DNA of 64,000 bases from Thermodesulfobacteriota bacterium. GTDB lineage: Bacteria; Desulfobacterota; BSN033; UBA1163. The stretch lies in the NCBI GenBank assembly GCA_035625415.1, contig DASPPQ010000032.1, positions 18,866-82,865 on the forward strand. The letters run 5' to 3'. This document shows, piece by piece, positions 42,589 through 58,976 of this stretch. The position numbers were made by a program, and so were the translations under genes. The notes beneath the pieces are model-generated. The model saw nothing but the letters and a program-made list of their open reading frames with translations. It was not told the origin of the DNA and ran no database searches. Every line of letters starts with the position of its first letter. Position 1 is the stretch's first letter.

Positions 42589-43890
42589 ATGTTAGCCAAA
42601 AGTGCTAAGTCTATCATTATGTGTCTGGTGGTCGCGGGGTTCTTAATGGCAGCCATTAGTGCTGATGCTGTTGCAGCCGACCAGAAGGCAAAAATTCCGA
42701 CTGAGCCGATCAAGATAGGTTTTGTGGTTCCCCTGTCGGGAGTTGCTGCCACGCTTTCACCTAATGCCGGGATAAATGCCGGTCTGGCCGTCGATTATAT
42801 CAACAAGTACGAAAAGGGTATATTGGGCCGCCCTGTAAAGACGATCATATACGACGAAAAAAATGCTCAGAACGCAGTCGAGGTATTCGGAAAGCTGGTC
42901 GAGAATGACAAGGTTGAGGCGATCTTAGGGCTCCTCTCCTCCAGTAGCGGACTGGCCGTTGCCCCGCAGGTGGAGACGAAATGGAAAATACCGACTCTTT
43001 TCCTTGAATCGACGACCATGGCTCTGTTTACTAAGGTTATTCCCAATCCCACGTATGTTTACAGAATCGGGCCCGATGATGTCATGCAATCAATGGCCCA
43101 TGTGACCGCAGTCCTCAAGGAGAAACCCAATTTAAAGACGATCGCCATAGGCGCTCCGGATTACGAATGGGGCCACGATGTGGTGAAACGTTTCCAGGAA
43201 ATTATGCAGAAGTTCAAACCCGACGTGAAGTTCGTATACACGTTCTTTCACCCGTTCGGGGAAGCAGGTCCTAACTTTTCTGCCTATATCACCAACGTCA
43301 TGCAGCATAAACCCGATGTCTACGTGGGATACTCTTGGGGTTCGGATGGAGTGGCCTGGCATAATCAAGCCGAAGCGATGGGACTCTACAAGAGGGTACC
43401 CCTGGTATTCGATGTCTTCAGTGGAACCGCCAAGGGAGAGATGGCGAGGGAAGGGGTACTGGGAGAAACCAGAGCAGGGAATGGTACCTTCCCTCCGTAT
43501 GTCTTGGGCTATCCGAACAGTAAGCTCACCCCCATGATCCTTGAGAAAACTGGCGTTCTACCCACATATGGAATGGACATCCATATGCTGACGGGTCTGC
43601 TTTATCTGAAGAAAGCGTACGAGAAAGTGTATGATTTAACCGGTCAATACCCTACGCCTGCAATGGTGGCAAAGATGCTGGATGGGTTATCCATCATGGG
43701 TCCCGATGGACTATCGTCGATGATCAATCACCAGTCGTCTGCTCCTGGCATGGCTGTCGGTAGACTTCACAAGGAGAAAAACGTCTGGGTTATGAAGGAT
43801 ATGATCTTTGTTCCCGATTATCTGAGGATTGTGCCGCCCTGGATGACTGTGGAACAGTTCATCAACAGTTTGGACAAGCTCGGAAGGTAG
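42589..43890 (+). CDS. Liv-type (type I periplasmic binding fold) ABC substrate-binding protein, module 1
   Basis: Signal peptide MLAKSAKSIIMCLVVAGFLMAAISADAVAAD. PIKIGFVVPLSGVAATLS...GILGRPVKTIIYDEKNAQNAVEVFGKLVENDKVEAILGLLSSSSG matches the LivK/Peripla_BP_6 family. Confidence 0.8.
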   Translation: MLAKSAKSIIMCLVVAGFLMAAISADAVAADQKAKIPTEPIKIGFVVPLSGVAATLSPNAGINAGLAVDYINKYEKGILGRPVKTIIYDEKNAQNAVEVFGKLVENDKVEAILGLLSSSSGLAVAPQVETKWKIPTLFLESTTMALFTKVIPNPTYVYRIGPDDVMQSMAHVTAVLKEKPNLKTIAIGAPDYEWGHDVVKRFQEIMQKFKPDVKFVYTFFHPFGEAGPNFSAYITNVMQHKPDVYVGYSWGSDGVAWHNQAEAMGLYKRVPLVFDVFSGTAKGEMAREGVLGETRAGNGTFPPYVLGYPNSKLTPMILEKTGVLPTYGMDIHMLTGLLYLKKAYEKVYDLTGQYPTPAMVAKMLDGLSIMGPDGLSSMINHQSSAPGMAVGRLHKEKNVWVMKDMIFVPDYLRIVPPWMTVEQFINSLDKLGR

Positions 43891-43926
43891 CGGCGGTACT
43901 CAAGCGATCATTGCCTGTGCTGTGGC

Positions 43927-44877
43927 ATGGCGCAGGCAATGATCCCCCTCATGGCACGCAGAGTGGCCCATTTTGAAAGACAGCCAATGCTCAGCACACT
44001 CTTTTCGTACGTCTTCAATTCCCTACCCATGGTCTCATACATCATCATGTTATCCTTTTCGTTAAACTTCATCTTATATATCTCCGGCCGGGTCTCCCTT
44101 ACCTTTGCCGGAATTTACCTGGTAGGAGCATACCTAACCGTTTCACTAAGTACGTTTTTATTAGGGAACAGTTTCTCTTTTTTGGCTTTTCTTGGGATTC
44201 TGCTTCTTGTAAGCCTATTGGGAGCAGCAATAGCGTTAGTCGTATACGGGGTATTTGAACGCTACCTGAAAACGGATGTTCACCGGATGATCGCTACTTC
44301 CTCATTGCTCATGGCTTTTAGCGGTGCAATCAAACTGAAATGGGGAACCACTCCGATTACCTATTCAGCTCCTTTCTTAGAAATGGGGACAACCGAAGTG
44401 CTCGGGAATTTTGTTTCCAACTATTACTTTTTCATGTTTGGGTTTGCCTTGGTGGTGATGCTTGTGCTGGCACTTTTTCTTCATAGGACCTCCTGGGGCT
44501 TGAGATTTCGTGCAAGTTCGCTGGACGGTGACAGGACAATGGCCCAGGTTTGTGGCGTGAACCAGAACGTCGTGACCATTATCACCTTCGCAATCACCGG
44601 GATATTGGCAAGCCTGGCCGGAGGTTTGTATGCTCCCATCGCTGGCGCTTCTTACGGAATTGAGGGCAATGCCCTTCTCCTGGCAGCACTCACGATCATC
44701 ATCGGTGGGGTCGGCAGCATAGGCGGAGCGGTCCTGACTGCTTTTATAATAGGAATCGCCAGAGTCGTCACCGCTGTTCAGATGCCAGTACTCGAACTTG
44801 CTATCCCGTTTATCATAGCCTCTGCAACATTGATGGTCAGGCCCTTCGGCCTATGGGGCAAAGAGTTCAAACATTGA
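43927..44877 (+). CDS. Liv-type ABC permease (LivH-like), module 1
   Basis: BPD_transp_2 family. The likely true start is MLSTLFSYVFNSL at 43987. Confidence 0.75.
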   Translation: MAQAMIPLMARRVAHFERQPMLSTLFSYVFNSLPMVSYIIMLSFSLNFILYISGRVSLTFAGIYLVGAYLTVSLSTFLLGNSFSFLAFLGILLLVSLLGAAIALVVYGVFERYLKTDVHRMIATSSLLMAFSGAIKLKWGTTPITYSAPFLEMGTTEVLGNFVSNYYFFMFGFALVVMLVLALFLHRTSWGLRFRASSLDGDRTMAQVCGVNQNVVTIITFAITGILASLAGGLYAPIAGASYGIEGNALLLAALTIIIGGVGSIGGAVLTAFIIGIARVVTAVQMPVLELAIPFIIASATLMVRPFGLWGKEFKH

Positions 44878-45018
44878 AAAACCCCCACCCAGCCGCTCCC
44901 CTCGAGAGACTGCGTCACAATCAAGCATGCGAGGGAGGAGGCAGTCGGGTTCCAAAGCTTTAGAACGCGGGTCTTTTAGGTATGGGAGACCGGCGTTGGA
45001 TGAAGCTAAGTCAAGCAG

Positions 45019-46044
45019 ATGAACCGTAAAGGAAGTATGGCGATTCGTTCTCGGGGCAGCAACGCCAAATTGATCGGAACACTGCTGTTAATAGCCATAG
45101 CGGTGGTTATCCCTTTTTTCATCAGCGGGTATCAGCGGACCTTGATACAAAAGTTCTTAATATGGACACCGGCAACCTTTGGGGTATATTTTCTGTATAA
45201 TCTTTTGCGTCAGGTTCATTTCGGTCAATCGATTTTTATCGGCATCGGCAGCTACATTATTGCTTTTTCAGCAGGAAAGTACGCGATCACCAACGAACTC
45301 ATGATATTGCTGCCCGCAGCCGTGGTCATCAGCATCTTCGTCGCCTACATATTGGGAATTTTCATCACCAAGAGGACGGGCTTTTACTTTGCGGTCATGG
45401 GTATTGCTGTCACCATGGTCTTCTGGTCACTCGTATACAAAGCGAGAGAAATAACCGGCGGCAGCGATGGTATCTCGCGTATCAAGAACCCGACCCTATT
45501 TACGGTACCACTAAACGATCTTGCCCTGTATTACTTATGCCTGCTCGTCTCAGTAGGGATGATCGTGCTGATGCTCCGGATCCTGAATTCGGCCTTTTCC
45601 CTTCAGCTTCGGGCAATTGCCGGAGACCTGGAAAAGGCCGAATCGATCGGTATTCCGGTGGATAGAATACAGAGGTTAGCATTTACGATTGCAGGAGTAA
45701 ACGCTGGAATCACCGGTGCTCTTCTTGCATTCACTTACAGCTACGTGAGCCCATCGACATTCGAGTGGGGGTATGGAGCCAACTTCGTTCAATCAGCCAT
45801 CATTGGAGGCGTCAATTCCGTCGCGGGTCCGATCGTTGGCGCATTCGGTTTTATCCATTTGGAATTCTTTATTTCTACATGGTTCGCCGACCTCTGGGAG
45901 ATCATTATCGGACTCAGCATAGCCATCATCGTTTTGACGGTAGGGGAAGAAGGGGTCACCGGCATTGCGCAAGCCGTCTTTGGCAAGATCAAAAGCAAAT
46001 TGAGAAGTCAGCAAGAGAGCACCGACGAGCATGTCAAATCATGA
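45019..46044 (+). CDS. Liv-type ABC permease (LivM-like), module 1
   Basis: 341-aa polytopic permease of the LivM family, in order after the LivH-like gene. Confidence 0.75.
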   Translation: MNRKGSMAIRSRGSNAKLIGTLLLIAIAVVIPFFISGYQRTLIQKFLIWTPATFGVYFLYNLLRQVHFGQSIFIGIGSYIIAFSAGKYAITNELMILLPAAVVISIFVAYILGIFITKRTGFYFAVMGIAVTMVFWSLVYKAREITGGSDGISRIKNPTLFTVPLNDLALYYLCLLVSVGMIVLMLRILNSAFSLQLRAIAGDLEKAESIGIPVDRIQRLAFTIAGVNAGITGALLAFTYSYVSPSTFEWGYGANFVQSAIIGGVNSVAGPIVGAFGFIHLEFFISTWFADLWEIIIGLSIAIIVLTVGEEGVTGIAQAVFGKIKSKLRSQQESTDEHVKS

Positions 46045-46801
46045 ACAGAAGCCGCATTTGATAAGCGTAAGTAAGCTGAGAAAACATTACGGTGAAGTAA
46101 AGGCCGTCGATGATATTTCTCTGGAAATTTCTGGAGGCCAAGTGATCACCCTCGTCGGCGCAAACGGCGCAGGCAAGACGACTTTGTTGAACCTGCTTAC
46201 GGGCTTGATCAGACCGGATCGCGGAGAGATCAGTTTACTTGGCGAAAAGATCACCGGGGTTCCGGCCGATCAAAGGGCCAAAAGAGGGGTTGTTAAAACT
46301 TTTCAGCTCGAACATGTATTTGGGGAAATGACGGTTTTTGATAATATGAGAGCTGCCTGCGTCTCAGCCGCAGGGAAGCATTATTCGATGTTCAAGGACA
46401 TCCAAAATGAAAAAGAGATCAATGAAAGAACCGAACATTTACTGGAGCTATTCGATCTATCAAGCGTGAAGGATAGTCTTGTGAAGAACCTGGGGCACGG
46501 TTATAGAAAAGTCATTGATATCGCCATGTGCTTTGCGATGAAACCCAGAATTCTATTGGTTGACGAGCCTACAAGCGGCGTGGGTGAAGAAGAAAAGTAT
46601 CGAACCATGGGTCTATTGATGGATCAAATACAAGCAAACAATCTCGCAGCGATCATCGTAGAACATGATCTTCAGCTCGTAAAGGAATTGTCGAAGGAGA
46701 CGATTGTTATGTGTGATGGGGAGTTCATCGCCAGAGGAACACCGGAACATGTATTCAGCCAGGAAAAGGTCATCGAGATCCTTGTTGGAAAAGGATTTTA
46801 A
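46031..46801 (+). CDS. Liv-type ABC ATPase (LivG-like) with degenerate signature motif, module 1
   Basis: Walker A GANGAGKTT and Walker B LLVDEPTSG. The LSGGQ position reads NLGHGYRKVIDIAMCF. Confidence 0.8.
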   Translation: MSNHEQKPHLISVSKLRKHYGEVKAVDDISLEISGGQVITLVGANGAGKTTLLNLLTGLIRPDRGEISLLGEKITGVPADQRAKRGVVKTFQLEHVFGEMTVFDNMRAACVSAAGKHYSMFKDIQNEKEINERTEHLLELFDLSSVKDSLVKNLGHGYRKVIDIAMCFAMKPRILLVDEPTSGVGEEEKYRTMGLLMDQIQANNLAAIIVEHDLQLVKELSKETIVMCDGEFIARGTPEHVFSQEKVIEILVGKGF

Positions 46802-47488
46802 TTGCTTGAAATAGATAAACTCACGGTTTCTTATGGGTCTGAGAGAGCGGTCAACGAAGTCTCCTTGAAGGTATCGGGCGAAGTCGTCTGCCTGTGCGGC
46901 CGAAACGGCGCAGGCAAATCCACTGTGCTGAAAGCGGTTGCAGGGGTAGTGGATGTAGGTTCTGGTCGGATATTGATGGATGGGCAAGATGTCATCACCA
47001 TCCCCCTTTTCAAGCGGTTGGAAAGCGGTATTGGTTATGTTCCGGAGGATAGAAAGCTCTTCAAAGAGATGACCGTGAGGGAGAATATAGAAGTAGCCAG
47101 AATCGGCGGAAGAGTCTCAGGAAGAAAAGAGATGAATATTGATGAACTCTTGCCGGAACTGGCACGCCTCTATAACAGAAAGAGCAAATTATTGAGTGGA
47201 GGGCAACAGAAAATTGTCAGTATTGCCAGAGCGATCATTACCTCTCCCGGTGTCCTGTTATTTGATGAATTGCTGGAAGGACTCGCACGGTCAATGATGA
47301 TTAGGATTTCTGAGATTGTGGTGAAACTAAAGGCGGAAGGAAAAGACATTCTCTGCGCCGAGTCAAGCTTGGATAAGGCGAGTTATTATGCAGATAGAAT
47401 CATCTGGTTAGAAAAGGGTCAAACCGTCGCAACAGGAAGCCCTGCCGAAATCAAGAAACAAATGATGGATGCCATTAGAGCAAAATAA
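46802..47488 (+). CDS. Liv-type ABC ATPase (LivF-like), module 1
   Basis: Walker A GRNGAGKST and an intact signature LSGGQQKIVSIARAI. The Walker B region is divergent (LLFDELLEGL). ILCAESS replaces LLVEQN. Confidence 0.8.
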   Translation: MLEIDKLTVSYGSERAVNEVSLKVSGEVVCLCGRNGAGKSTVLKAVAGVVDVGSGRILMDGQDVITIPLFKRLESGIGYVPEDRKLFKEMTVRENIEVARIGGRVSGRKEMNIDELLPELARLYNRKSKLLSGGQQKIVSIARAIITSPGVLLFDELLEGLARSMMIRISEIVVKLKAEGKDILCAESSLDKASYYADRIIWLEKGQTVATGSPAEIKKQMMDAIRAK

Positions 47489-47571: not shown

Positions 47572-48216
47572 ATGGAAAAAGAAGAAGTTGAATCTTTTTA
47601 TAAAGCCTTAAGGGACACTCATCTTTCCACGATGGAAACGCTTGTGAAGGAGTGCATCGGGAAGGGAGCGTCGCCCATGATTATCCTGAATGAAGGGCTC
47701 ATCGGTGCCATGGCGATAGTCGGCCAGGAGTTCAAGGCGTGTCAAGTCTGGGTGCCAGAAGTCCTTCTGGCTGCAAGAAACATGAACCGGGGAATCGAAA
47801 TCCTCAAGCCAGAGCTCCTCAGGGAGAAATTGCCAAGCAAGGGCACATTTGTTATCGGGACAGTGGAAGGAGATATTCACGACATCGGGAAGAATCTTGT
47901 CACCATGATGATGACGGGCGCTGGATACACGGTGATCGACCTGGGAATCAATGTTCCGAAAGATCGATTCCTGGAAGTCATTCCAAAGGAGCAACCAGAC
48001 CTGGTTGGCCTCTCCGCCCTTCTCACCACGACGATGCTCAAGATGAAAGATGTCATAAGGGCGATCCGCCAATCCGTATCTAACCCTCCGAAGATCATTG
48101 TGGGTGGCGCCCCGGTTACCCAAACATTTGCCGACGAGATTGAAGCAGACGGCTATGCGGAAGATGCGGTCAGGGCAATGGAGTTGGCCAACCGTCTGCT
48201 TTCAAGAGGAGGATGA
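47572..48216 (+). CDS. Corrinoid (cobalamin-binding) protein, MtaC/MtbC-like, module 1
   Basis: N-terminal B12-binding_2 helical cap. Cobalamin-binding motif GTVEGDIHDIGKNLVTMMMTGAGYTVIDLG (DxHxxG...G.G) in a Rossmann domain. Confidence 0.85.
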   Translation: MEKEEVESFYKALRDTHLSTMETLVKECIGKGASPMIILNEGLIGAMAIVGQEFKACQVWVPEVLLAARNMNRGIEILKPELLREKLPSKGTFVIGTVEGDIHDIGKNLVTMMMTGAGYTVIDLGINVPKDRFLEVIPKEQPDLVGLSALLTTTMLKMKDVIRAIRQSVSNPPKIIVGGAPVTQTFADEIEADGYAEDAVRAMELANRLLSRGG

Positions 48217-49259
48217 GGATGGAAAGCGGTCTTCGATCTACGCCCAAGCGTCGATTCCTTTCAGGTCTCCTCGGAGGGAGGAAAGGAAACCGAATATGCG
48301 TAGCCAACCCCACTTCAATCGTTTCGGTTGAATTGATGGAGAAAACAGGTGTCTATTTCCCGGAAGCTCATCTGGATCCTTTAAAAATGTCTCAACTCGC
48401 AGCAAGTGGATGTGAAATCCTGGGTTTTGACTCCATTATGCCGGAGTTTAGTGTCCAGCAGGAAGCTGAGGCTTTGGGATGTGTGGTCGATTGGGGAAGT
48501 CCCACCATGATGCCAGATGCTAAAACGCATCCTGTGAAAGAGGTGGAGGACCTTACCATTCCTGACAATATTCTTGAAAAACCTTCAATGGCGGTCGTGC
48601 TCAGAGCTCTGGAAATCTTGAGCCGAACCTATGGAGACCGCGCCGCCATTGTCGGGAAAGTGATGGGCCCATGGACGATTTCATATCATCTGTGCGGTGT
48701 CCAGGATTTTCTGATTTGGACCTTGACTGAGCCAGAAAAGGTGAAGGAGCTTCTCCGTCAGCTCAAGGAGGTATCGATAACATTTGCCAATGCCCAATTT
48801 CGCGCTGGCGCGGATGCGGTCGTGATTGCGGATCATGCGACAGGAGACCTTGTTAGCCCCAAGGCCTATCAGGATTTTCTCCTTCCTGTTCATCAGGAGA
48901 TGAATCGGCGGATTGGAGGACCAACCATCCTTCACCTCTGCGGGAACTGCTCTGACCGACTGAGGCTCTTTGTCGAGGCTGGTTTTGACGCCTACCATTT
49001 CGAATGGCAGGTAGAGGCCAAGATGGCTGTTCAAGAGGTCAATCATGAAATGTCTCTCATTGGTAATATTGCTAACAAAAATGTGCTCTTCGGAGGAACT
49101 CCGGAGGACGTTTATAAACAAGCCCGTTACAGCATACAGGCTGGTGTGGATATCCTTGCTCCGGAATGCGCTGTTCCTCTCCAAACTCCACTTGCAAACC
49201 TGAAGGCGATCGTCGAGGCAGCCAAAGAAGGTTACGGAGCTCAGGGGCTTCAGCCCTGA
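48213..49259 (+). CDS. URO-D-family methyltransferase (MtaA/CmuA-like, HxCxxC zinc motif), module 1
   Basis: The N-terminus RRFLSGLLGGRKGNRICVANPTSIVSVELMEKTGVYFPEAH matches the MtaA N-terminus. Putative Zn ligands lie in ILHLCGNCSD. Confidence 0.8.
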   Translation: MRMESGLRSTPKRRFLSGLLGGRKGNRICVANPTSIVSVELMEKTGVYFPEAHLDPLKMSQLAASGCEILGFDSIMPEFSVQQEAEALGCVVDWGSPTMMPDAKTHPVKEVEDLTIPDNILEKPSMAVVLRALEILSRTYGDRAAIVGKVMGPWTISYHLCGVQDFLIWTLTEPEKVKELLRQLKEVSITFANAQFRAGADAVVIADHATGDLVSPKAYQDFLLPVHQEMNRRIGGPTILHLCGNCSDRLRLFVEAGFDAYHFEWQVEAKMAVQEVNHEMSLIGNIANKNVLFGGTPEDVYKQARYSIQAGVDILAPECAVPLQTPLANLKAIVEAAKEGYGAQGLQP

Positions 49260-49676
49260 TTAATAGCCCTAGAAGGTTGAGTTATGAAAGCCGATCGAAC
49301 TCAATATGCCGAGCAACAAGAAAGTCCGCTATTTCTGACGGCCTTTTAGATCCCCACTTTCGCCAGGAGAAGCTTTCATCTTGGCAACGTCCCACTCTTC
49401 CGCACAGTTACCCATGCAGTCCCATCGGCGCTGAAGAGCTTAACTTCCGCACTAGGGATGGGGATGAGTATGACCCCTTGGGACAACTCGTGATCTTATC
49501 CTTAAGTTCAAGATAGTTGGACTACTCAGGCTTCGGTCCTACTATTTGATCAATCATTTGGCATTGACAATCACATATTAGTAGAATAGATATCAATACT
49601 ATGTATCAGAAATTGGGAGAGCCATGATCTGGGAGCTTCTTTTTATTTGTTACCATTTTAAGAAAGGAGGATAGAG

Positions 49677-50972
49677 ATGGAAAGGACAAGGCGTGAATTT
49701 GTAAAGTTAGTTGGAGGGGCGGCTTTGGGTGCAGGCGTGATACTTGCAGGTCAAGGCAGGGCAAGGGCGCAGGCCAAAACGTTTAAGGGAGTACCGTCAG
49801 AGCCGATAAAGATTGGGGCGATGCCAGGTTTGGCGGGTGTGATCGCTGTACCCGGTACCGCAGCCTGGCGCACGACCCAGATGTGGGTGGAAGAGGTCAA
49901 CGCAGCCGGCGGCATACTTGGAAGGAAGATCGAGCTCTTCATGGAAGAGGAAACGAGTGCCAAGGACTGCGTGGAACGGTTCAGAAAACTCACCCTGGAA
50001 AAGAAGTGCGATGTGATTGTAGGTCTGATGTCGACTGGGAACGGACTCGCCGTCGGACCGGTGGCAGAGGAAATGGGCCAATTATGGCTCTCTTGGGACG
50101 CCACAACCCAGAAAGGCGTTGAAGAAACAATGCCCAAGACCAAATTTGTTTTTAAAAGTACTGATAACGAGGCAGAAGCCATTGGAGGCGCGATCCTGAC
50201 AGCGAAATTTTTCCCCAATATTAAAACCGTCGCTGGAATTAACAATGATTACTCCTACGGTCGAGACTGCTGGGATACTTACCAGGCAGTTCTCAAGAAT
50301 TTTCTTCCCAACGTAAAATTTGTTGAAGCCCTATGGCCGAAATTGGGCGAGACTGATTTTACTTCCCATATCGCTGCCCTCAAAAAGGCCAATGCGGATT
50401 TGATCATGACCAGTTTTTGGTCCGGAGATGTACCCGTTCTAATGAAACAGGGAACAGCGGCTGGCCTTTTTAAGAAGAGCAAAGCCTGCTTTACCACCGG
50501 GGGTGGTGCCCATTATACCCTCAAGAAAGAATTCACCCCGGAAGGGATTATCCTCGGGTATAACAGCTACTATTTCAGGTGGACGGATACCTGGCCATTG
50601 CTCAAGAAATTCAACAAGTCGTACCATGAAAAATACAAGGAATACCCCGTCTATGAGTGTGACCATGCCTACTTTGTTCTCCAGGCCTACAAAGCTGCGG
50701 TGGAGAAATGCTATAACCTTTTTGGTAAATGGCCGACAAAGGAAGAGATCGGGAAGGCCCTGAGTGGTATCGAAGTGCCATCGATTTCCGGCTTAAGGGG
50801 ATACAGGGAAGATAACATTATGACCTGCAACTTCTTCCAGGGTCTCACCACATATAAGAATCCCTACGATTTCGTCACCATTAGTCCAATAGAAGTTCTG
50901 ACACCGGTACAGATTATGAAACCCACTGCTGGAGAGAAGTTGTACGATTGGATTAAGGGATGGAAATCTTAG
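49677..50972 (+). CDS. Liv-type ABC substrate-binding protein with Tat signal, module 2
   Basis: Tat motif TRREFVKLVGGAALGAGVILA. Peripla_BP_6-type fold (PIKIGAMPGLAGV...GGILGRKIELFMEEE). Confidence 0.8.
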   Translation: MERTRREFVKLVGGAALGAGVILAGQGRARAQAKTFKGVPSEPIKIGAMPGLAGVIAVPGTAAWRTTQMWVEEVNAAGGILGRKIELFMEEETSAKDCVERFRKLTLEKKCDVIVGLMSTGNGLAVGPVAEEMGQLWLSWDATTQKGVEETMPKTKFVFKSTDNEAEAIGGAILTAKFFPNIKTVAGINNDYSYGRDCWDTYQAVLKNFLPNVKFVEALWPKLGETDFTSHIAALKKANADLIMTSFWSGDVPVLMKQGTAAGLFKKSKACFTTGGGAHYTLKKEFTPEGIILGYNSYYFRWTDTWPLLKKFNKSYHEKYKEYPVYECDHAYFVLQAYKAAVEKCYNLFGKWPTKEEIGKALSGIEVPSISGLRGYREDNIMTCNFFQGLTTYKNPYDFVTISPIEVLTPVQIMKPTAGEKLYDWIKGWKS

Positions 50973-51062: not shown

Positions 51063-51950
51063 ATGATCGAGACAATTCTTAACATACTCTTTAGCGGCGT
51101 TTTTAATGCATCAACCCTTTTTCTGGTTGCAGCAGGGCTTCAAGTCGTCTTCGGTGTGCAGAAGGTCTTCAACCTGGCGTGTGGCACGTTCTATGCCCTC
51201 GGAGCCTATGTTGGTATTACAGTGGTAAAAAGCCTTGTCGCGGGGGGATTCCCAACTCCGCTATTCATTGTTCCGCTGATTATGGCTGGGTTATTGCTGG
51301 GCTTCATCGGGCCTATTTTTGAACGTGGGCTGATCAAGTTTGTCTATGACCGGGATGAGACGTTCCAGCTCCTCTTGACCTTTGCCATGGTGATGATGAT
51401 TGAGGACATCATTAAGTTCATCTGGGGGACGTCTCCGCAGACCATGGGAGGCATTGACCTCGTTTATGGACAACTGAATATTTTGGGAGCCACGATTCCG
51501 GTTTACAACCTCATTGTCATCGGATGTAGTTTCGGCATGGCGATCCTGATCGGATACATTCTCTTGAATACGAAGTTCGGCCGGACTATTCGTGCGGCCG
51601 CAGACAAGAGGGAGATGAGTGAGGCCCTGGGCATCAATATGACCTGGATCTATGTCAAGGTTTTCACCCTGGGAACAATTCTTGGGACATTGGGTGGCGC
51701 TTTGGTCATCCCTGCTGGTGCGGCCGTCTCAGAGATGGGCGTGGAGTTGATCGTCCTGGCTTTTGCTGTTGTTGTTATTGGCGGGCTTGGAAGCATGAAG
51801 GGAGCCTTTGTCGGTGCCCTGGTAGTGGGAGTGTTGAAGTCGATCGCCATTTCAACTTATCCGGAACTCGAAATGCTCACGATCTATATCATCGTGATTG
51901 TCGTTCTAGTGATCAAACCTCAAGGACTGTTCGGAGGTGGTAGAGTTTAA
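51063..51950 (+). CDS. Liv-type ABC permease (LivH-like), module 2
   Basis: 295-aa BPD_transp_2 family permease. Confidence 0.8.
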   Translation: MIETILNILFSGVFNASTLFLVAAGLQVVFGVQKVFNLACGTFYALGAYVGITVVKSLVAGGFPTPLFIVPLIMAGLLLGFIGPIFERGLIKFVYDRDETFQLLLTFAMVMMIEDIIKFIWGTSPQTMGGIDLVYGQLNILGATIPVYNLIVIGCSFGMAILIGYILLNTKFGRTIRAAADKREMSEALGINMTWIYVKVFTLGTILGTLGGALVIPAGAAVSEMGVELIVLAFAVVVIGGLGSMKGAFVGALVVGVLKSIAISTYPELEMLTIYIIVIVVLVIKPQGLFGGGRV

Positions 51951-52933
51951 TGCGAAATCGGCGGGAGGTAACGGCCCTTAAGAGTTTTAGGATAGTGTCA
52001 CTCGTTGTGGGCGGCCTTTTTTTGCTTGGGTTGCCGCTGTGGACAAGTCAATTCATCAGTTATTTGATGCTGACGTTCTTTGCTTATGCAATTACCGTGA
52101 TCGGTTTCAATCTTCTCTTTGGATATACTGGCCTCTTGTCTTTCGGCCACGCCCTTTTTATGGCCGTGGGCGCTTACACGGCAGCCTTCCTGACGTCAAA
52201 ATTTTCATTCCATTATATGGAGATCATACTCGTTGTGGCCGTGATCGTGGCTTCTCTCCTGGCTGCATTGATCGGGGCCATTTGCGTCCGGTACATCAAA
52301 ATTTACTTTGCAATGCTCACCCTGGCTTTCGGGATGCTCTTTTACACATTCCTGCTAAAGTTCTATTACCTGACCGGAGGGGACGAAGGGATGCGTGTCT
52401 TGAGGCCTTATCTGTTGGGGTTCAACTTTTCTGAGATTCCCAAGATGCAATTTCTTACGGGAAGCTATTATCTTTATACGTTTGCCCTTCTGGCCGTCCT
52501 TACTTTCGTCATGTGGAAAATTGTCTCTTCGCCTTTGGGGCTGTGTTTGAAGGCGATCAGGGATAATCCCGAGAAGGCTGAATACCTGGGGGTGAGTGTC
52601 AGGAAATACCGATGGTTCGCATTTGTCATTTCCGGGGCTTACGCTGCGATTGGCGGAGCGCTCCTGGCTCCTGCCATCGGCCAGGTGGATCCAGGGCTGA
52701 CTTATTGGACTCATTCGGGGACTCTGGTTTTTATGACGCTCCTCGGGGGCTTTGAAAACTTTCTCGGCCCTCTGATTGGCGGCGTCGTCTATATTTTCCT
52801 TCAGGACAAGGTAATGTCTCTTACACAGTATTGGAGGTTTATCTTTGGAGGTATCCTTGCGTTTATCGTCATTGCGGCACCGGGGGGTATCGCCGGGATG
52901 ATCAGTTCTTTGGTGAGAAGGAGAAAGAGTTGA
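51950..52933 (+). CDS. Liv-type ABC permease (LivM-like), module 2
   Basis: 327-aa polytopic LivM-family permease. Confidence 0.8.
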   Translation: MRNRREVTALKSFRIVSLVVGGLFLLGLPLWTSQFISYLMLTFFAYAITVIGFNLLFGYTGLLSFGHALFMAVGAYTAAFLTSKFSFHYMEIILVVAVIVASLLAALIGAICVRYIKIYFAMLTLAFGMLFYTFLLKFYYLTGGDEGMRVLRPYLLGFNFSEIPKMQFLTGSYYLYTFALLAVLTFVMWKIVSSPLGLCLKAIRDNPEKAEYLGVSVRKYRWFAFVISGAYAAIGGALLAPAIGQVDPGLTYWTHSGTLVFMTLLGGFENFLGPLIGGVVYIFLQDKVMSLTQYWRFIFGGILAFIVIAAPGGIAGMISSLVRRRKS

Positions 52934-52950: not shown

Positions 52951-53739
52951 ATGATTCTTTCTGCAGAAGATCTTCATAAGCACTATGGGGAGTTCTGTGC
53001 TTTGGGTGGAGTCAGTTTTCAGGTCTACGAAGGAGAGTTTATCTCCATCATCGGACCGAACGGAGCGGGGAAGACTACTTTGATCAATGTCTTGACCGGC
53101 CTGCTGAAACCGAATCGAGGAAGAGTCTTTTTTAAAGAAATGGAGATTACGGGGATCGGTCCTGAGAGGCTTTCCAGATTAGGACTTGCCCGGAGTTTTC
53201 AACTGGTCAACATTTTCCCAAATTTTACTGTCCTTGAATTTCTGATGGTTGCCATTGTTTCAAGACTCGGCAAAGTAAAGAACTTTTTCTCATCGCTCCT
53301 TCGTGACCAGGAGGTAACCGAAGAGGCGTTGGTAGTGGCAAAGCTCTTCGGGCTCGACGAGAAAAGGGATATGCTCACTAAGAATTTGCCCCAAGGGGAC
53401 AAAAAGATGCTCGATGTGGCGTCTGCCTTTGCCCTCCATCCGGAGGTCATCTTACTCGATGAACCGACCAGCGGCGTGAGCACGAGCGACAAGAACAAAA
53501 TTATGGAAACGCTAGTATCTGCATCGAAGAAGATTGGGATTAAATCGATCATCCAAGTGGAACACGACATGGATATCGTCTTTTCGTACTCGGATCGGAT
53601 CATTGCCCTGCATCAGGGGAAGATCCTTGCGGATGGCGCCCCAGAAAAGATCGAAAAGGATGAAGAGGTGGTATGCACGGTGGTGGGGCAGAAGGAATGT
53701 TTCAAGATCTTCAGGGCCGTATTGAACAGAGAGAATTGA
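52951..53739 (+). CDS. Liv-type ABC ATPase (LivG-like) with degenerate signature motif, module 2
   Basis: Start at the ATG after RBS aagggggaag. Walker A GPNGAGKTT and Walker B ILLDEPTSG. The signature position reads LPQGDKKMLDVASAF. Confidence 0.8.
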   Translation: MILSAEDLHKHYGEFCALGGVSFQVYEGEFISIIGPNGAGKTTLINVLTGLLKPNRGRVFFKEMEITGIGPERLSRLGLARSFQLVNIFPNFTVLEFLMVAIVSRLGKVKNFFSSLLRDQEVTEEALVVAKLFGLDEKRDMLTKNLPQGDKKMLDVASAFALHPEVILLDEPTSGVSTSDKNKIMETLVSASKKIGIKSIIQVEHDMDIVFSYSDRIIALHQGKILADGAPEKIEKDEEVVCTVVGQKECFKIFRAVLNREN

Positions 53740-53751
53740 AGGCAACTCACG

Positions 53752-54462
53752 ATGATACTCGAAGTTAAAAACCTCAATGTATATATTAAGGCCAGTCACA
53801 TTATCAGAGATGTGGCGATCCAAGTGGGGGAAGGGGAGGTCGTCTGTCTCATCGGAAGAAATGGGGCGGGGAAAACCACCCTTCTCAGATCGATTATGGG
53901 ATTTCTGAAACCTGAGGCAGGTACCGTCAGGTTCAAAGGGGAGGAGATGAAAGGATTAACTCCTCATGAGATCGCTCTGAAGGGGATGGGCTTTGCTCCT
54001 GAGGAAAGCGAAATTTTCGCTGATTTAACCACCTTAGAAAATATTGAGATCGCGACATGGACTCGAAAAACGTCTCGTTCAGCAGAAGAAAGGATCAGGC
54101 TTGCTTATTCTGTATTTCCATCTTTGGAAAGATATAAGGCGAGAAAGGGGACACAGATCAGTGGAGGAGAGAGAAAAATGCTCTCCATCGCGAGAGCTCT
54201 TGCCATGGACCCTCACATGTTGTTGCTCGATGAGTCCTTCGAAGGGCTCTCACCTGGCATCATCCCCCAAATTGCGGAGAGCATCCATGAGATTGCCAAG
54301 ATGGGCCGCTCGATCTTTCTTGCCGAGTCCAACATCTACCATGTCCCTGATTTCACGGATAGGGTTTACGTGATCGAGCGAGGCGAGATTATTTTTTCGG
54401 GAAAACCTGAAGCGTTGATAAAGGATAAAGCCGTCCTGAAGATTGTGGCAGGAGCTGCTTAA
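53752..54462 (+). CDS. Liv-type ABC ATPase (LivF-like), module 2
   Basis: Walker A GRNGAGKTT, signature ISGGERKMLSIARAL and LLLDESFEGL. IFLAESN replaces LLVEQN. Confidence 0.8.
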   Translation: MILEVKNLNVYIKASHIIRDVAIQVGEGEVVCLIGRNGAGKTTLLRSIMGFLKPEAGTVRFKGEEMKGLTPHEIALKGMGFAPEESEIFADLTTLENIEIATWTRKTSRSAEERIRLAYSVFPSLERYKARKGTQISGGERKMLSIARALAMDPHMLLLDESFEGLSPGIIPQIAESIHEIAKMGRSIFLAESNIYHVPDFTDRVYVIERGEIIFSGKPEALIKDKAVLKIVAGAA

Positions 54463-54685: not shown

Positions 54686-55327
54686 ATGCCTGAGACGACA
54701 ACTGTGAAAGAGGAACTTAAAGAGGCCATCATCAAGGGGAAGCGGGATGCGGTCGAGCCATTGATTCGAAAGGCCTTGTCCGAGGGATTAAGACCCGAAG
54801 AAGTCATGGATAAGATGATGATCCCCGCCATGGACGTGGTAGGAGACCGGTTTTCCCGAAATGAGATTTTTCTGCCGGAGATGATGATTGCCGCCCGGGC
54901 GATGAACACAGGACTGGATATCCTCCGCCCGATGCTCGTTGCACAAGGACTTTCGAGCAAAGGGAAGGTGGTGATCGGTTCGGTGAAAGGCGACATCCAC
55001 GATGTGGGGAAGAGCATCGTCTCAATGGTTCTTCAAGGGGCCGGGTATGAGGTCATCGATTTGGGAATCGATACTCCGCCCGAGAAATTCGCCGATGCCG
55101 TGAGGCAGCATCAGCCCAGGTTTGTGCTGATGTCCGCTCTTCTCACTTTGACCATGTCGATGATGGAAGAGACGATCAAAGCTCTCAAGCAGACAGGGCT
55201 AAGGGAAAAAGTGAAAGTTGGCGTGGGAGGAGCTCCACTCACCCAGAGTTTTGCGGATCGAATTGGGGCAGACTTTTACGGCAAAGATGCCCGCGCCGCT
55301 GTGATAAAATGCAACGAGTTAATTTGA
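54686..55327 (+). CDS. Corrinoid (cobalamin-binding) protein, module 2
   Basis: Motif GSVKGDIHDVGKSIVSMVLQGAGYEVIDLG. Paralogue of the 47572 protein. Confidence 0.85.
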   Translation: MPETTTVKEELKEAIIKGKRDAVEPLIRKALSEGLRPEEVMDKMMIPAMDVVGDRFSRNEIFLPEMMIAARAMNTGLDILRPMLVAQGLSSKGKVVIGSVKGDIHDVGKSIVSMVLQGAGYEVIDLGIDTPPEKFADAVRQHQPRFVLMSALLTLTMSMMEETIKALKQTGLREKVKVGVGGAPLTQSFADRIGADFYGKDARAAVIKCNELI

Positions 55328-55345
55328 AATGATGGGGGATAGAAC

Positions 55346-56443
55346 ATGAAACCAAGGGAAAGAATTCTAACCGCACTAAGGAGAGGGACTCCGGATCAGG
55401 TTCCCTGGATAGAGAATGATATTGAAGAAGGCCTTCAGGAAAGAATCATGGGCACGACCGACTTCACGCCCGGTGACCTCTGCGAGAAGCTCGGAATGGA
55501 TGGCTTTGGGTATCATTTCCCGATGGGCGGGAAAGCGACTGCGGGCCAGGCCATGCAGGCAGCTGTGGGGTTCAAGGAAAGTTACTATTATCCGCAAAAG
55601 GTGACCTTCGATTTCGTCCCTCCCTGGATTTCGGAGATGGGAGTCACTGAAAGCGGTCGGACGTTTATCAAAAAGGGGCTCCTTACTTCCAAGGATTCCT
55701 TAAAACTTTTTGATGAATATCTTCCCGACCCGGATCATCCAGCCCGGTATGACAAGGTGTCTAAGTGGATCGCTCAATTCAAGAGGGACTATGCGGTCTT
55801 CGCGAGAATCCGATTGGGTTCCGCTTCGTTGCTTGAAAGTATGGGAGTCGTCGAGTTCGCTTATAATGTCTACGATAACCCAGACCTAATCAAAGAAGTC
55901 CATCAAAGGTTCTCAGAATGGTCGGCGAAAGTCGTGGAACATCTGAACCAAATGGATTTTGATTATTACTGGGCAAATGATGACCATGCCGATACGAAAT
56001 CGACCTGGATGAGCCGGGAACAGTATCGAGAATTTTTCTTGCCCTATCAAAAGATTGTGGCGAATGTCATGAAGAAACCCTGGGTTTTTCATAGCGATGG
56101 CAATCTCATGCCCATTCTGGACGACCTGCTTACCTTGGGGATGAACGGACTTCACCCCATTCAACCCGCCGCCATGGACATCAAAGAAGTCAAAGCCAAA
56201 TACGGGCAAAAGGTCTGCATTCTTGGTAACGTCGATCTCGATTATACCCTTACCCTTGGAACACCCGACGAGGTGGATAAGGAAGTGAAGGAAAGAGTCG
56301 CTGTCGCTGGACCCCGAGGTGGGTACATTGTGACGAGCGCCAACAGTCTGACAGATTACTGCAAGACCGAGAATGTTTGGGCCATGGCCCGTGCCATCAA
56401 GAAATACGGGAAGTACCCATTGGACCCAAATTTATTCAAATAG
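55346..56443 (+). CDS. URO-D-family methyltransferase-like protein lacking the HxC zinc motif, module 2
   Basis: N-terminus RILTALRRGTPDQVPWIEND is of the URO-D/MtaA type. The Zn-motif position reads VFHSDGN, with no Cys. Confidence 0.65.
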   Translation: MKPRERILTALRRGTPDQVPWIENDIEEGLQERIMGTTDFTPGDLCEKLGMDGFGYHFPMGGKATAGQAMQAAVGFKESYYYPQKVTFDFVPPWISEMGVTESGRTFIKKGLLTSKDSLKLFDEYLPDPDHPARYDKVSKWIAQFKRDYAVFARIRLGSASLLESMGVVEFAYNVYDNPDLIKEVHQRFSEWSAKVVEHLNQMDFDYYWANDDHADTKSTWMSREQYREFFLPYQKIVANVMKKPWVFHSDGNLMPILDDLLTLGMNGLHPIQPAAMDIKEVKAKYGQKVCILGNVDLDYTLTLGTPDEVDKEVKERVAVAGPRGGYIVTSANSLTDYCKTENVWAMARAIKKYGKYPLDPNLFK

Positions 56444-56517: not shown

Positions 56518-57327
56518 ATGAAGGTTGAATCCATGCTGATCGTCGGAGAAAGAATCAACGCCTCTCGAAAGCCTATTGCCGAAGCCATCGCCTCACGTAA
56601 CGCCGTCTTTATTCAGAATGAAGCAAAGGCTCAGGCCATTGCAGGAGCTAACTATCTCGATGTCAACGCCGGGACGTTTGTGGGAGAAGAGGCGAGACAT
56701 CTCCAGTGGGTTATCGAAACAGTTCAGGAAGCCGTAGCCCTTCCCTTATGCATTGATAGTCCGGATCCTTCTGTGATCAAGGCGATGATTCCTTTGGCAA
56801 AGAAAACTCCGATGATTAATTCCATCACACTGGAGCCCTCACGGTTGGAAGGAATCCTGCCGTTAATTGTTAAGCATAAGACCAAGGTCATCGGTCTTTG
56901 CCAATCGGGAGACGCTATTGCTGATACCGCAGAGGCAAAAGTGAAAATGGCTGGACAGTTGATTGAGGGCGTGAAGGCTGCGTCCATTCCTCTGGATGAC
57001 CTCTACATCGATCCCCTCGTCTATCCCCTCGCGACGAATGACAGGTCAGCGTTGGCCACACTTAATGCCATGGAGCAGATCATAACCCAATTTCCGGGTG
57101 TTCATACCACTTGTGGCCTAACGAACGTTTCTTACGGACTCCCGAACCGAAAGCTTGTCAATCGAACCTTTCTTGTGGCGGCCATCGCTCGTGGTCTGGA
57201 TTCCGCTATCCTGGACCCTACTGACAAAGAGCTCTTCGGCGCTCTCAAGGCCGCTCTTCTGGTTTCCGGCAAGGATGAATTCTGCATGGGATATATCTCA
57301 GCCTTTCGCGAGGGAAGGTTTGAGTAA
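56518..57327 (+). CDS. Pterin-binding methyltransferase (methyl-corrinoid:tetrahydrofolate methyltransferase, MetH/AcsE/MtgA-like)
   Basis: Motifs IVGERINASRK, ANYLDVNAG, GLTNVSYGLPNR and AILDP match the DHPS-like pterin-binding TIM barrel of MetH and methyl-THF:corrinoid methyltransferases. Confidence 0.85.
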   Translation: MKVESMLIVGERINASRKPIAEAIASRNAVFIQNEAKAQAIAGANYLDVNAGTFVGEEARHLQWVIETVQEAVALPLCIDSPDPSVIKAMIPLAKKTPMINSITLEPSRLEGILPLIVKHKTKVIGLCQSGDAIADTAEAKVKMAGQLIEGVKAASIPLDDLYIDPLVYPLATNDRSALATLNAMEQIITQFPGVHTTCGLTNVSYGLPNRKLVNRTFLVAAIARGLDSAILDPTDKELFGALKAALLVSGKDEFCMGYISAFREGRFE

Positions 57328-57360
57328 ATTTATTGACTGATCGCGTATAGCTGGTCGCGG

Positions 57361-58026
57361 ATGGCAAACATAAAATACCTGGTGATCGCCTGTAATATTA
57401 TGAAGGACGAGATTCTCCGTTTTCAGGCCAACGGAATCTCCTTCGTTTTCTTGGAGCAGTCCCTCCATCGAACGCCCCAGAAGATGAAGCCGATCATTCA
57501 GGCGGAGATCGACAAGGCTGAAGAACAGGATTGGGATTACATTATTTTGAGCTATGGGCTTTGCAGTAACGGGATCTTGGGTGTCAAGTCGAAAAATCAT
57601 CCCATCGTCATTCCTCGTGTCCACGACTGCATTGCTCTTTTTCTTGGCTCGTGGGAAAAATACATTGAGGAGCACAGGAAGGAACCGGGCACCTACTATT
57701 TGACCAAGGGATGGATCGAAGAGGGCAAATCGCCTCTCGGAATATTTCAGGAATATTGTCAGCGCTACGATAAAGAGACGGCCGAATGGGTGATCAGGGA
57801 GGAGTTGAAGAACTACACGAGAATTGTGTTGGTGGACATGGGTGCCGAGTCGGAGGCCCTTCGGGAACATGCGAGGGAGAACGCGCATTTCCTCAATTTG
57901 AGGTATGAGGAGATGAGAGGGTCTTTGGAATTTTTTGAGAAGATGCTCCAGGGATGCTGGGATAAGGATTTTATCATCTTGAAACCCGGTGAAGAAGTAA
58001 CACAGGAATTATTTTTAGATCTTTAG
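57361..58026 (+). CDS. DUF1638-like protein (family recurrently found next to corrinoid methyltransferase genes)
   Basis: 221-aa soluble protein sitting between the methyltransferase and the activator remnant. The family assignment is from memory and was not computed. Confidence 0.4.
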   Translation: MANIKYLVIACNIMKDEILRFQANGISFVFLEQSLHRTPQKMKPIIQAEIDKAEEQDWDYIILSYGLCSNGILGVKSKNHPIVIPRVHDCIALFLGSWEKYIEEHRKEPGTYYLTKGWIEEGKSPLGIFQEYCQRYDKETAEWVIREELKNYTRIVLVDMGAESEALREHARENAHFLNLRYEEMRGSLEFFEKMLQGCWDKDFIILKPGEEVTQELFLDL

Positions 58027-58065
58027 CCGACTTTTGTCTTACTTTGCTTTTTATAAGAAGAATCG

Positions 58066-58976
58066 ATGAAAAAGTTTGAAATAATCTTTCAACCTTCGGG
58101 GGTGAGAGGTGAAGTTTTGGAGGCAAAGAGCATCCTTGAAGCCTCGAGGGAATTGGGGGTCGAAATAGAATCTCTCTGTGGAGGGAAGAGGGCCTGCGGC
58201 AAATGCAAGGTTAAGTTGGTGGAAGGGTCCCTTTCGGCCTTCACGGATGATGAAGCCAAGTTCATCACGGAAAGAGAAAGAGTTGAGGGTTATCGACTTG
58301 GATGCGCGGCTCAGATTAGAGGAGATGTTTCAATTCTTGTGCCCGAGGAGAGCCGTCCCGGAAAGCAGGTGCTCAGAAAGGCGGCTACCGGAAGATCAAT
58401 TGAACTGAATCCTGCGATCCATCCCTACTATGTCGAACTCTCCCTACCATCACTCGAGATCCTCATGGAGATCTTGATCGGCTTAAAAAGGGACTTTTCG
58501 AAAAGTATCATCTCTCCTCACTCCGTATCGATTACCATGCCTTGTTAAGGCTTCCGACGCTTCTGCGGCAGGGAAATTGGAAAGTCACTGTTGCCGTATG
58601 GATGGAGAAAGAGATTCTGGATGTCAAGCCTGGAAAGCTAGAGGATGCTTATGGGTTGGCTGTCGATGTTGGAACCACAACAGTTGCTGCCTATCTCTGC
58701 AATCTCAGAAGCGGAGAGGTGATAGCGACTGAATTGATGATGATTCCTCAGATCAGTTACGGTGAGGATGTGATGTCAAGAATCACTACTTTGACCCATC
58801 CAGAGGACGGTCTTGAAAGGATGCACAGGTTGATTATTGACGGACTGAACCAATTGGTCAGAGATATCACCGGAAAATGCCACCTCGGCGCAGAGGATAT
58901 TTTAGAGTTGACCTTTGTGGGTAACACTGCCATGCATCATTTCTTTATGAAGATCGATCCTCGGTACCTAGTGTAG
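58066..58976 (+). pseudogene. RACE-type reductive activator of corrinoid enzymes (RamA/RACo-like), frameshifted and truncated
   Basis: The N-terminal 2Fe-2S ferredoxin domain reads CGGKRACGKCKV...GCAAQI. A -1 frameshift lies near 58460-58540 (frame +2 ...SLPSLE, frame +1 ...DPHGDLDRLKKGLFEKY). The ASKHA domain begins LAVDVGTTTVAAYL...VGNTAMHHFFMKIDPRYLV, then hits a stop at 58976. Only about 300 of an expected 550-650 aa remain. A repeat element starts 27 nt downstream. Confidence 0.65.

Follow-up and report, generated by a model that had tools for sequence, protein, structure and literature searches.

Positions 42589-58976 of a 64,000-nucleotide stretch of DNA from a Thermodesulfobacteriota bacterium (assembly GCA_035625415.1, contig DASPPQ010000032.1, positions 18,866 to 82,865; the whole stretch is referred to here as the window) carry two consecutive gene modules, each of which joins a five-gene Liv-type ABC importer of the HAAT family to a small corrinoid protein (CP1 or CP2) and a UroD-fold substrate:corrinoid methyltransferase (MT I; MT-1 or MT-2). 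A single gene for a pterin-binding methyltransferase (MT II) follows. The system belongs to the known class of corrinoid-dependent three-component methyltransferases, and we consider it rather probable that the modules are two independent operons for uptake plus demethylation that deliver methyl groups to tetrahydrofolate (THF), with a methyl thioether as the probable substrate of module 1 and a methyl ether as that of module 2, both bearing a carboxylate.

Organisation of the two modules

Scans with Pfam and NCBIfam models confirmed both modules and the genes downstream of them, and every gene, domain and motif that a sequence-only reading had named for this region was present where that reading had placed it. 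Its overall description, corrinoid-dependent systems of the three-component type feeding THF, also holds, with two MtgC/MtbC-like corrinoid proteins, two UroD-superfamily methyltransferases and one MT II. The features are the following (coordinates in the window, strand, assignment):

42278..42306, +, sigma-70-like promoter candidate 5' of module 1 (TTGACA-17-TATATT, 11/12 matches, consensus match only)
42589..43890, +, SBP1, HAAT-family (LivK-type) periplasmic substrate-binding protein (SBP) with Sec-type signal (Peripla_BP_6, PF13458, 137 bits)
43927..44877, +, LivH-like permease, module 1 (BPD_transp_2, PF02653)
45019..46044, +, LivM-like permease, module 1 (BPD_transp_2, PF02653)
46031..46801, +, LivG-like ABC ATPase, module 1 (ABC_tran, PF00005)
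46802..47488, +, LivF-like ABC ATPase, module 1 (ABC_tran, PF00005)
47572..48216, +, CP1, corrinoid protein with cap and Rossmann B12-binding domains, GDIHDIGKN (B12-binding_2, PF02607, and B12-binding, PF02310)
48213..49259, +, MT-1, MtaA/CmuA-family UroD-fold methyltransferase, HLCGNC (URO-D, 223 bits, full length)
49558..49587, +, sigma-70-like promoter candidate 5' of module 2 (TTGGCA-18-TAGAAT, 10/12 matches, consensus match only)
49677..50972, +, SBP2, HAAT-family binding protein with Tat signal TRREFVK (PF13458, 159 bits)
51063..51950, +, LivH-like permease, module 2 (PF02653)
51950..52933, +, LivM-like permease, module 2 (PF02653)
52951..53739, +, LivG-like ABC ATPase, module 2 (PF00005; start taken from gene calls on identical contigs)
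53752..54462, +, LivF-like ABC ATPase, module 2 (PF00005)
54686..55327, +, CP2, corrinoid protein, GDIHDVGKS (PF02607 and PF02310)
55346..56443, +, MT-2, UroD-fold methyltransferase of an uncharacterised clade (PF01208, 77 bits, C-terminal half only)
56518..57327, +, MT II, predicted methylcorrinoid:tetrahydrofolate methyltransferase, pterin-binding TIM barrel (PF00809; GERINASRK, LDVNAG, GLTNVSYG)
57361..58026, +, DUF1638 protein (PF07796, 153 bits)
58066..58976, +, RACo/RamA-type reductive activase pseudogene (Fer2 fragment at 58066-58548, PF00111; linker and middle fragment at 58542-58976, PF17650 and PF17651)

The gene order of module 2 (49677-56443) is that of module 1. Within module 1 the start of MT-1 overlaps the stop codon of CP1, and for the first ATPase of module 2 the start at 52951 (262 aa) is probably a better choice than the TTG codon at 52831. 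Since each SBP gene has its own promoter-like site and the modules are separated by a gap of 417 nt, which contains the module 2 promoter candidate, they are probably two separate transcription units. Corresponding proteins are 29% (SBPs), 44% (corrinoid proteins) and 23% identical (methyltransferases, over ~200 residues), values that rule out recent tandem duplication. Separate assemblies of three ENA samples show this same arrangement, and module 1 alone recurs on a JGI peat contig, which excludes an assembly artefact. No riboswitch or other known RNA reached its gathering score anywhere in the window.

MT-1 and its predicted thiol-type zinc site

MT-1 passes the cut-offs of the MtaA/CmuA family (PRK06252, 296.7 versus 244; TIGR01463, 268.9 versus 235.4) and stays below the equivalog cut-offs of MtaA (292.8 versus 400) and MtbA (205.4 versus 600). 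It aligns end to end with MtaA of M. mazei (PDB 4ay7, E = 6e-55), and in this alignment the three zinc ligands of MtaA are kept (LHLCGN against LHICGN, APECAV against APGCGI); the same His-Cys-Cys positions are invariant in 11 homologues. MT-1 is thus predicted to have a zinc site of the thiol/selenol type at the MtaA positions, of the thiolate-binding kind that MtaA shares with MtsA and MtpA. The chloromethane MT I CdmB (9rui) gave no match to MT-1, which lies in the MtaA/CmuA branch and apparently outside the O-demethylase clade of MtvB, OdmB and MtoB. That the UroD-like proteins might be genuine uroporphyrinogen decarboxylases, a possibility raised by the sequence-only reading against itself, is excluded: the hemE model TIGR01464 gives MT-1 68.2 bits against a cut-off of 302.95 and does not hit MT-2, and no heme genes lie nearby in the window.

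The enzyme has numerous relatives, more than 3,000 in the databases at E <= 1e-20 and more than 120 clusters at >=78% identity in metagenome-assembled genomes (MAGs) of Thermodesulfobacteriota. Among more distant homologues (~70% identical; L133-L171), an enoyl-CoA hydratase-like gene and a corrinoid protein gene consistently precede MT-1 in 22 loci, and there is often no transporter or MT II within 10 kb.

Within the UroD superfamily, His-Cys-Cys marks the S/Se-methyltransferases, while the O-methyltransferases carry carboxylates in place of Cys (Kountz and Balskus, PMC10418091). Because of its thiol-type zinc site, MT-1 is likelier to act on a methylthio than on a methoxy substrate. A precedent is MtpA of Methanosarcina, an MtaA-like thioether:cob(I)alamin MT I that acts on a carboxylate substrate and is encoded with its own corrinoid protein (10.1101/548461). 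The earlier suggestion that the two modules handle two related substrates is accordingly doubtful, since the modules are unrelated to each other and MT-1 is of the MtaA type with a His-Cys-Cys site and apparently not a member of the O-demethylase clade.

MT-2, a UroD-fold enzyme of an uncharacterised clade

An AlphaFold (AF2) model of MT-2 built from 17 homologues (pLDDT 85.6, pTM 0.87) shows a complete UroD-type barrel, whose best fold match in the PDB is MtaA (4ay8, TM 0.70-0.75). The sequence-only reading had noted that this second UroD-like protein lacks the HxC motif, which is correct with the refinement that the His is kept and an Asp stands in the Cys position (FHSDGN). The H-S-D-G-N motif is invariant in the 17 homologues, the third Cys ligand is absent, and MT-2 thus does not share the His-Cys-Cys feature of the thiol-type enzymes. 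Nor is it a member of the MtaA/CmuA family, with scores below the cut-offs of both TIGR01463 (61.1) and PRK06252 (58.6). The one other relative of solved structure at the sequence level is CdmB, which belongs to the O-demethylase clade (PMC13222342); the match is weak (9rui, E = 5.7e-10) and spans only residues 219-357 (~140 residues). On account of the invariant motif and the missing Cys, MT-2 would represent an uncharacterised UroD-fold clade with a predicted oxygen-type or metal-free site.

This clade is widespread, with homologues of 56-91% identity in at least seven phylum-level groups; such homologues occur in Thermodesulfobacteriota, Burkholderiales, Hyphomicrobiaceae, Rhodospirillales, Bacillota, Chloroflexi and Actinomycetes. 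It is common in MAGs of Burkholderiales, Hyphomicrobiaceae and Rhodospirillales (56-70% identical; L021-L091, e.g. L022, L029, L035, L082), as part of a conserved cluster that also holds a corrinoid protein, MT II, an intact RACo, DUF5981-MTHFR, DUF1638, a TRAP transporter and a GntR regulator. The cluster, to which PhyH dioxygenases, an FAD oxidoreductase and a CmuA-like protein with fused UroD-like and corrinoid domains also belong, resembles a cobalamin-dependent locus for harvesting methyl groups, in lineages that are not generally counted as strict anaerobes.

Corrinoid proteins, MT II and a decayed activase

Both CP1 and CP2 consist of a Rossmann B12-binding domain with the DxHxxG motif and a helical cap (PF02607 and PF02310) and are MtgC/MtbC-like, the NCBIfam scores of CP1 lying below the equivalog cut-offs. 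The CP1 gene is found directly upstream of MT-1 in nearly all related loci that are long enough to show it.

The gene at 56518-57327 encodes a pterin-binding MT II related to MetH, AcsE and the MT II proteins of O-demethylases (PRK07535, 317.6 versus a cut-off of 259). Its closest relative is the O-demethylase MT II of D. hafniense (4o0q, E = 1e-54), followed by AcsE-type enzymes (2yci, E = 6e-51), and a tblastn search returned it as the single pterin-binding gene of the window, in line with the earlier description of a single O-demethylase-like MT II. The adjoining DUF1638 gene belongs to a family that has been linked genetically to B12 reactivation together with RamA-like proteins (PMC5764234; PMC12478193), and it accompanies MT-2 in 47 of the 62 surveyed loci of at least 10 kb.

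The gene that follows is dead. What the sequence-only reading took for the remnant of a RACE-type activator is a RACo pseudogene whose match to a 631-aa homologue is confined to residues 13-128 and 186-311, with a frameshift near 58455-58548. It retains the 2Fe-2S, linker and middle domains but lacks the ATPase half and RACo_C_ter, and the locus thus holds no intact ATP-dependent activase of the RACo/RamA type. The disrupting indels vary by sample: the window, L001 and L002 lack a G near 58455, and L003 (14846-15889) has an extra G near 58791. Every RACo copy ends at 58976, before palindrome-rich non-coding DNA that includes a 22-nt inverted repeat at 59446-59490. Consequently, either an activase encoded elsewhere must act on the corrinoid proteins or the system is decaying.

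Importers and their binding proteins

Each module encodes a complete HAAT-family (LivJHMGF-type) importer with a PF13458 binding protein, two PF02653 permeases and two ABC ATPases. The two SBPs score 32 and 49 against a cut-off of 477 with the branched-chain amino acid model NF011933, and 37 and 72 against 492 with the urea model TIGR03407 (UrtA), and are thus neither LivJ/K nor UrtA members. SBP1 belongs to a narrow family of ~30 clusters. The top fold match of its AF2 model (pLDDT 79.5) is 3i45, then 4eyg and 4ey3, and its nearest ligand-annotated neighbours after 3i45 bind vanillate or 4-hydroxybenzoate (4eyg, 4ey3, 4evs); the E-values are nearly flat over aromatic, amino-acid and urea binders, and CouP (4jb0) ranks 46th. 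For SBP2 the best solved relatives are 3i45, an unannotated protein, and 8tg1, a urea binder. Sequence, profile and fold searches thus gave no ligand for either protein, with aromatic-acid, amino-acid and urea binders near-equal and the nearest solved structures being structural-genomics entries. The Tat motif of SBP2 is conserved in most orthologues (eight of nine sequences in the alignment).

Recurrence of the coupling across genomes

The association between importers and methyltransferases was followed in 80 genome loci with an MT-2 alignment, annotated by tblastn and clustering, and in 80 metagenome loci for MT-1; transporters were counted in loci of at least 10 kb, which leaves 62 for MT-2 and 23 for MT-1. 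The core gene set around MT-2 is CP2-MT2-MTII-RACo-(DUF5981-MTHFR)-DUF1638. A SBP2-LivHMGF-CP2-MT2-MTII unit stands without module 1 in three loci (L013-L015), followed by DUF1638 in L013 and L014 and ending at MT II in L015. Orthologues of SBP2 (44-85% identity) adjoin MT-2 in Actinomycetes, Chloroflexi, Alpha- and Betaproteobacteria and Thermodesulfobacteriota. Overall, MT-2 adjoins an orthologous importer (permeases 53-86% identical) in at least five phylum-level groups in which the surrounding genes are shuffled, among them Actinomycetes (L036), Chloroflexi (L053) and Proteobacteria (L046, L058, L064) with SBPs of 44-57% and permeases of 53-66% identity.

For module 1, the MT-1 survey found the importer only in the closest relatives (L092-L094, L099). 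Two further loci carry an SBP1-type importer beside an MT-1-like gene that keeps H-x-C…C, one in a Firmicutes MAG (L173; SBP 67%, MT-1-like 44% identical) and the other (L176; 86% and 59%) also with a GntR regulator, MT II and DUF1638.

The transporters found beside the methyltransferases are nevertheless of several kinds. MT-2 has a Liv-type importer in 8/62 loci, TRAP DctPQM in 29/62, an MFS transporter in 5/62 and none in 20/62, while MT-1 has a Liv-type importer in 2/23 and a TRAP transporter in 10/23. The claim of the sequence-only reading that each pair of MT I and corrinoid protein is hard-wired to its own importer was therefore too strong, whereas the coupling as such is real and recurrent, since the synteny of importer and methyltransferase is conserved across phyla; the Liv-type importer is one of several interchangeable uptake solutions and not an obligatory one. 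TRAP binding proteins typically recognise a carboxylate, and the set of partner transporters, HAAT ABC, TRAP and MFS of the Sugar_tr type, points to an organic acid as the substrate. For the TRAP SBPs that accompany MT-2 and MT-1, the nearest matches are proteins that bind lactate and 2-oxoacids (2zzv, E = 1e-70; 7ug8), which points to small aliphatic acids. One MT-1 locus (L005) contains a tannase/feruloyl-esterase gene.

In seven Thermodesulfobacteriota loci (L016, L017, L019, L102, L105, L111, L113), MT-1 and MT-2 occur together around a TRAP transporter with a Tat signal, which replaces the Liv-type importers. These loci also encode a third UroD-like methyltransferase (~420 aa, motif CHCDGEN) and a paralogue of MT II that shares 35-41% identity with the one in the window. 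MT-1 and MT-2 also co-occur in Desulfotomaculum copahuensis (L077). Such co-occurrence suggests either a regulon for harvesting methyl groups from several substrates or the stepwise demethylation of related compounds. Routes of the latter kind might be, speculatively, dimethylsulfoniopropionate to methylmercaptopropionate (MMPA) to mercaptopropionate, S-methylmethionine to methionine to homocysteine, or dimethylglycine to sarcosine to glycine.

Proposed pathway and alternative explanations

We infer the following pathway, including the way in which methyl groups flow, the common use of MT II and the classes of substrate. Each HAAT-family ABC importer would capture a scarce methylated solute via its binding protein, and each MT I would move the methyl group of that substrate onto the Co(I) of its small corrinoid protein. 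The single MT II encoded downstream of module 2 would hand the methyl group from methyl-Co(III) to THF and would serve both CP1 and CP2. DUF1638 and a RACo activase, the latter supplied from elsewhere in the genome, would keep the cobalt reduced. MT-1 would demethylate a carboxylate-bearing methyl thioether, for example a methylthio-carboxylic acid or an S-methyl amino acid, and MT-2, in which His/Asp replaces His/Cys, a carboxylate-bearing methyl ether.

If the His-Cys-Cys site were not diagnostic of sulfur, both modules might be classical aromatic O-demethylases for lignin-derived methoxylated acids such as vanillate, syringate and ferulate, for which the peat habitat and the nearest relative of MT II, an O-demethylase component, would be fitting. 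However, MT-1 belongs to the MtaA/CmuA family with its thiol-type ligands intact, and MT-2 seems to resemble the MtvB/MtoB/CdmB clade only remotely (E = 6e-10, 140 residues). The transporters can be read both ways: the vanillate and 4-hydroxybenzoate binders that follow 3i45 in the fold search with SBP1 are offset by its near-flat E-values. Likewise, R. palustris takes up lignin aromatics by HAAT ABC and TRAP systems, families seen here (PMC3610893), and MFS transporters flank MT-2 in Bacillota as they do in Mto clusters, yet the TRAP SBPs near MT-2 and MT-1 resemble lactate and 2-oxoacid binders most. Even with the tannase/feruloyl-esterase gene of L005 in its favour, we regard aromatic O-demethylation by both modules as unlikely, though worth serious consideration. 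It is improbable that MT-1 runs in the accepting direction like MtaA, so that the methyl group of CP1, obtained from methyl-THF via MT II or from the MT-2 substrate, would pass to a thiol (sulfide, methanethiol or an imported mercapto acid) and yield volatile or excreted methyl sulfides. The closest characterised relatives of MT-1, MtaA and MtbA, are indeed methylcobamide:thiol methyltransferases, but MtpA, of the same fold, works as a thioether MT I, and MT-1 comes with a corrinoid protein and, at this locus, an importer of its own, as fits a substrate-capturing MT I, whereas sulfide needs no ABC importer. A related Mlp from a clostridium uses methylcobalamin to methylate selenide and sulfide (PMC10418091), it is documented that dimethyl sulfide arises in anoxic peat when thiols are methylated and that freshwater isolates carry out O-demethylation dependent on sulfide (PMC5607357 and references therein), and the co-occurrence of MT-1 with MT-2 in several arrangements (L016, L017, L019, L077, L102, L105, L111, L113) would likewise agree with such a methyl transfer to thiols.

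The importers might also be ordinary amino-acid transporters that merely adjoin the methyltransferase genes with no functional coupling. A further Liv-type importer does lie in the window beside glycine cleavage genes, most MT-1 and MT-2 loci have no Liv-type importer, and an SBP1 orthologue in Desulfobaccales adjoins an acyl-CoA synthetase gene with no methyltransferase nearby. Chance adjacency is nonetheless very hard to reconcile with orthologous importers beside MT-2 in at least five phylum-level groups despite shuffled surroundings, with the recurrence of the narrow SBP1 family beside MT-1-like genes in two further lineages, and with scores far below the cut-offs of the branched-chain amino acid-specific models, and we give it little credence.

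Several observations weigh against the reading as two THF-linked demethylation operons. The sharing of one MT II by two corrinoid proteins that are only 44% identical is assumed, and related module 1 loci (L093, L094, L176) have an MT II paralogue of their own. Both SBPs are only remotely similar to any binding protein with a known ligand. In 11 of the 23 long MT-1 loci there is no transporter near MT-1 and its corrinoid protein, and often no MT II either, so that the substrate might be diffusible or the role a different one. The rule on zinc ligands reflects a correlation in published work, and Cys ligands are used by some O-demethylase MT I enzymes as well. Finally, RACo is a pseudogene in every copy seen, and the locus may for this reason not be fully functional.

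Surrounding genes

The sequence-only reading also had the methyl group enter an adjacent glycine/serine C1 metabolism, a link that the gene arrangement does not support. The glycine cleavage genes (29032-36309) lie ~6 kb from the cluster, with a patatin-like gene, several opposite-strand genes and a low-G+C stretch in between, they include no gcvT, and a functional link was rejected for want of any operonic evidence and of gcvT. The third Liv-type importer of the window (23729-28601) accompanies an M20-family peptidase gene and stands directly upstream of gcvH, gcvPA, gcvPB, lipoate ligase, lpd and lipA (segment 22011-36309); a fragment of an IS200-like Y1 transposase (33412-33915) overlaps the start of the lpd open reading frame.

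Two stretches of the window, 18000-22000 and 38000-42000, have a markedly lower G+C content of 41-43% compared with ~49%. The second of them, directly upstream of module 1, contains only hypothetical open reading frames and an XRE-type helix-turn-helix gene and may be acquired DNA. On the other side of the cluster, ~750 nt of non-coding DNA separate the truncated RACo from an MFS_1 transporter gene (59735-61006), which has a strong promoter-like site (59669-59697) to itself. The MFS gene beside MT-2 in Desulfotomaculum copahuensis (L077) is 46% identical to it, and the window gene may belong to the same functional neighbourhood as the methyltransferases.

Relation to known systems and significance

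The bacterial three-component O-demethylases of Acetobacterium, Desulfitobacterium and Moorella and the archaeal Mto systems resemble the window in that a UroD-superfamily MT I, a DxHxxG corrinoid protein, a pterin-binding MT II and a RACo-type activase are encoded together. They differ in that MT-1 falls into the MtaA/CmuA branch and MT-2 appears only remotely related to the MtvB/OdmB/MtoB branch, while the window has a five-gene HAAT ABC importer, a pseudogene activase and two pairs of MT I and corrinoid protein that apparently share one MT II. Mto clusters also contain a transporter gene, although of the MFS type, as in Methermicoccus and Archaeoglobus (PMC8630106, PMC8359953). The methanogen systems MtsA/MtsB and MtpA/MtpC(/MtpP) share with module 1 an MtaA-like zinc methyltransferase paired with its own corrinoid protein, and MtpA acts as MT I on the carboxylated thioether MMPA (10.1101/548461). 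In the window, by contrast, the host is bacterial, the importer is of the ABC type and the predicted acceptor is THF, via a pterin-binding MT II, and not coenzyme M.

Bacterial homologues of soluble coenzyme M methyltransferases (SCMT) with His-Cys-Cys also occur with a corrinoid protein and RACE in the type 1 mlp clusters, for which methyl-sulfur or methyl-selenium substrates were proposed (PMC10418091). These clusters contain at least two distinct Mlps (Mlp2, Mlp3) and characteristically no THF methyltransferase, whereas the window has one SCMT-like gene and an MT II, and membership in this group was rejected on architecture. The alternation of Liv-type and TRAP transporters around MT-1 and MT-2 is matched by CouPSTU and TarPQM of Rhodopseudomonas palustris, where HAAT ABC and TRAP systems are interchangeable for carboxylated substrates (PMC3610893); these, however, feed CoA-dependent aromatic degradation and not corrinoid methyl transfer. 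The split methionine synthase and MtgBCD systems (PMC5764234, PMC12478193) likewise have a separate pterin-binding methyltransferase and corrinoid protein, a RamA/RACo-like activase and DUF1638, and they share their MT II between two functions, but run in the biosynthetic direction, unlike what is proposed here.

The earlier statement that a coupling of importer and demethylase is undescribed is too strong, because MFS transporters inside Mto clusters are known; the version with a HAAT ABC importer does seem to be undescribed. A literature search on the combination of corrinoid protein, branched-chain ABC importer, binding protein and demethylation found no paper, and in the searchable literature there seems to be no description of uptake by a five-gene HAAT ABC importer, of the MT-2 clade or of a bacterial enzyme of the MtaA type with a thiol site that is linked to a THF-dependent MT II.

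Corrinoid methyltransferase systems control the entry of plant and microbial methyl groups into anaerobic carbon and sulfur cycling, which in peat bears on the emission of methane and dimethyl sulfide. MT-1 and MT-2 represent two abundant and highly conserved MT I clades, and since ligand screening of SBPs is far easier than anoxic enzymology, the substrates could be approached experimentally through the dedicated binding proteins (SBP1, SBP2 and the TRAP SBPs). A tentative and more far-reaching possibility is that module 1 is a bacterial thioether demethylase, made up of importer, MtaA-like MT I, corrinoid protein and THF-dependent MT II, by which non-methanogenic anaerobes of freshwater peat would gain methyl groups from methylthio-carboxylates or S-methyl amino acids, and that MT-1 forms, together with MT-2 and the third UroD-like enzyme, a multi-substrate methyl-scavenging regulon whose MT-2 branch has spread to Burkholderiales and to other lineages outside the classical strict anaerobes. 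If this is true, MT-1 as a bacterial thioether:THF demethylase would fill a gap in the anaerobic sulfur cycle, and module 1 would supply the missing enzymology for the anaerobic turnover of methylated sulfur compounds by bacteria.

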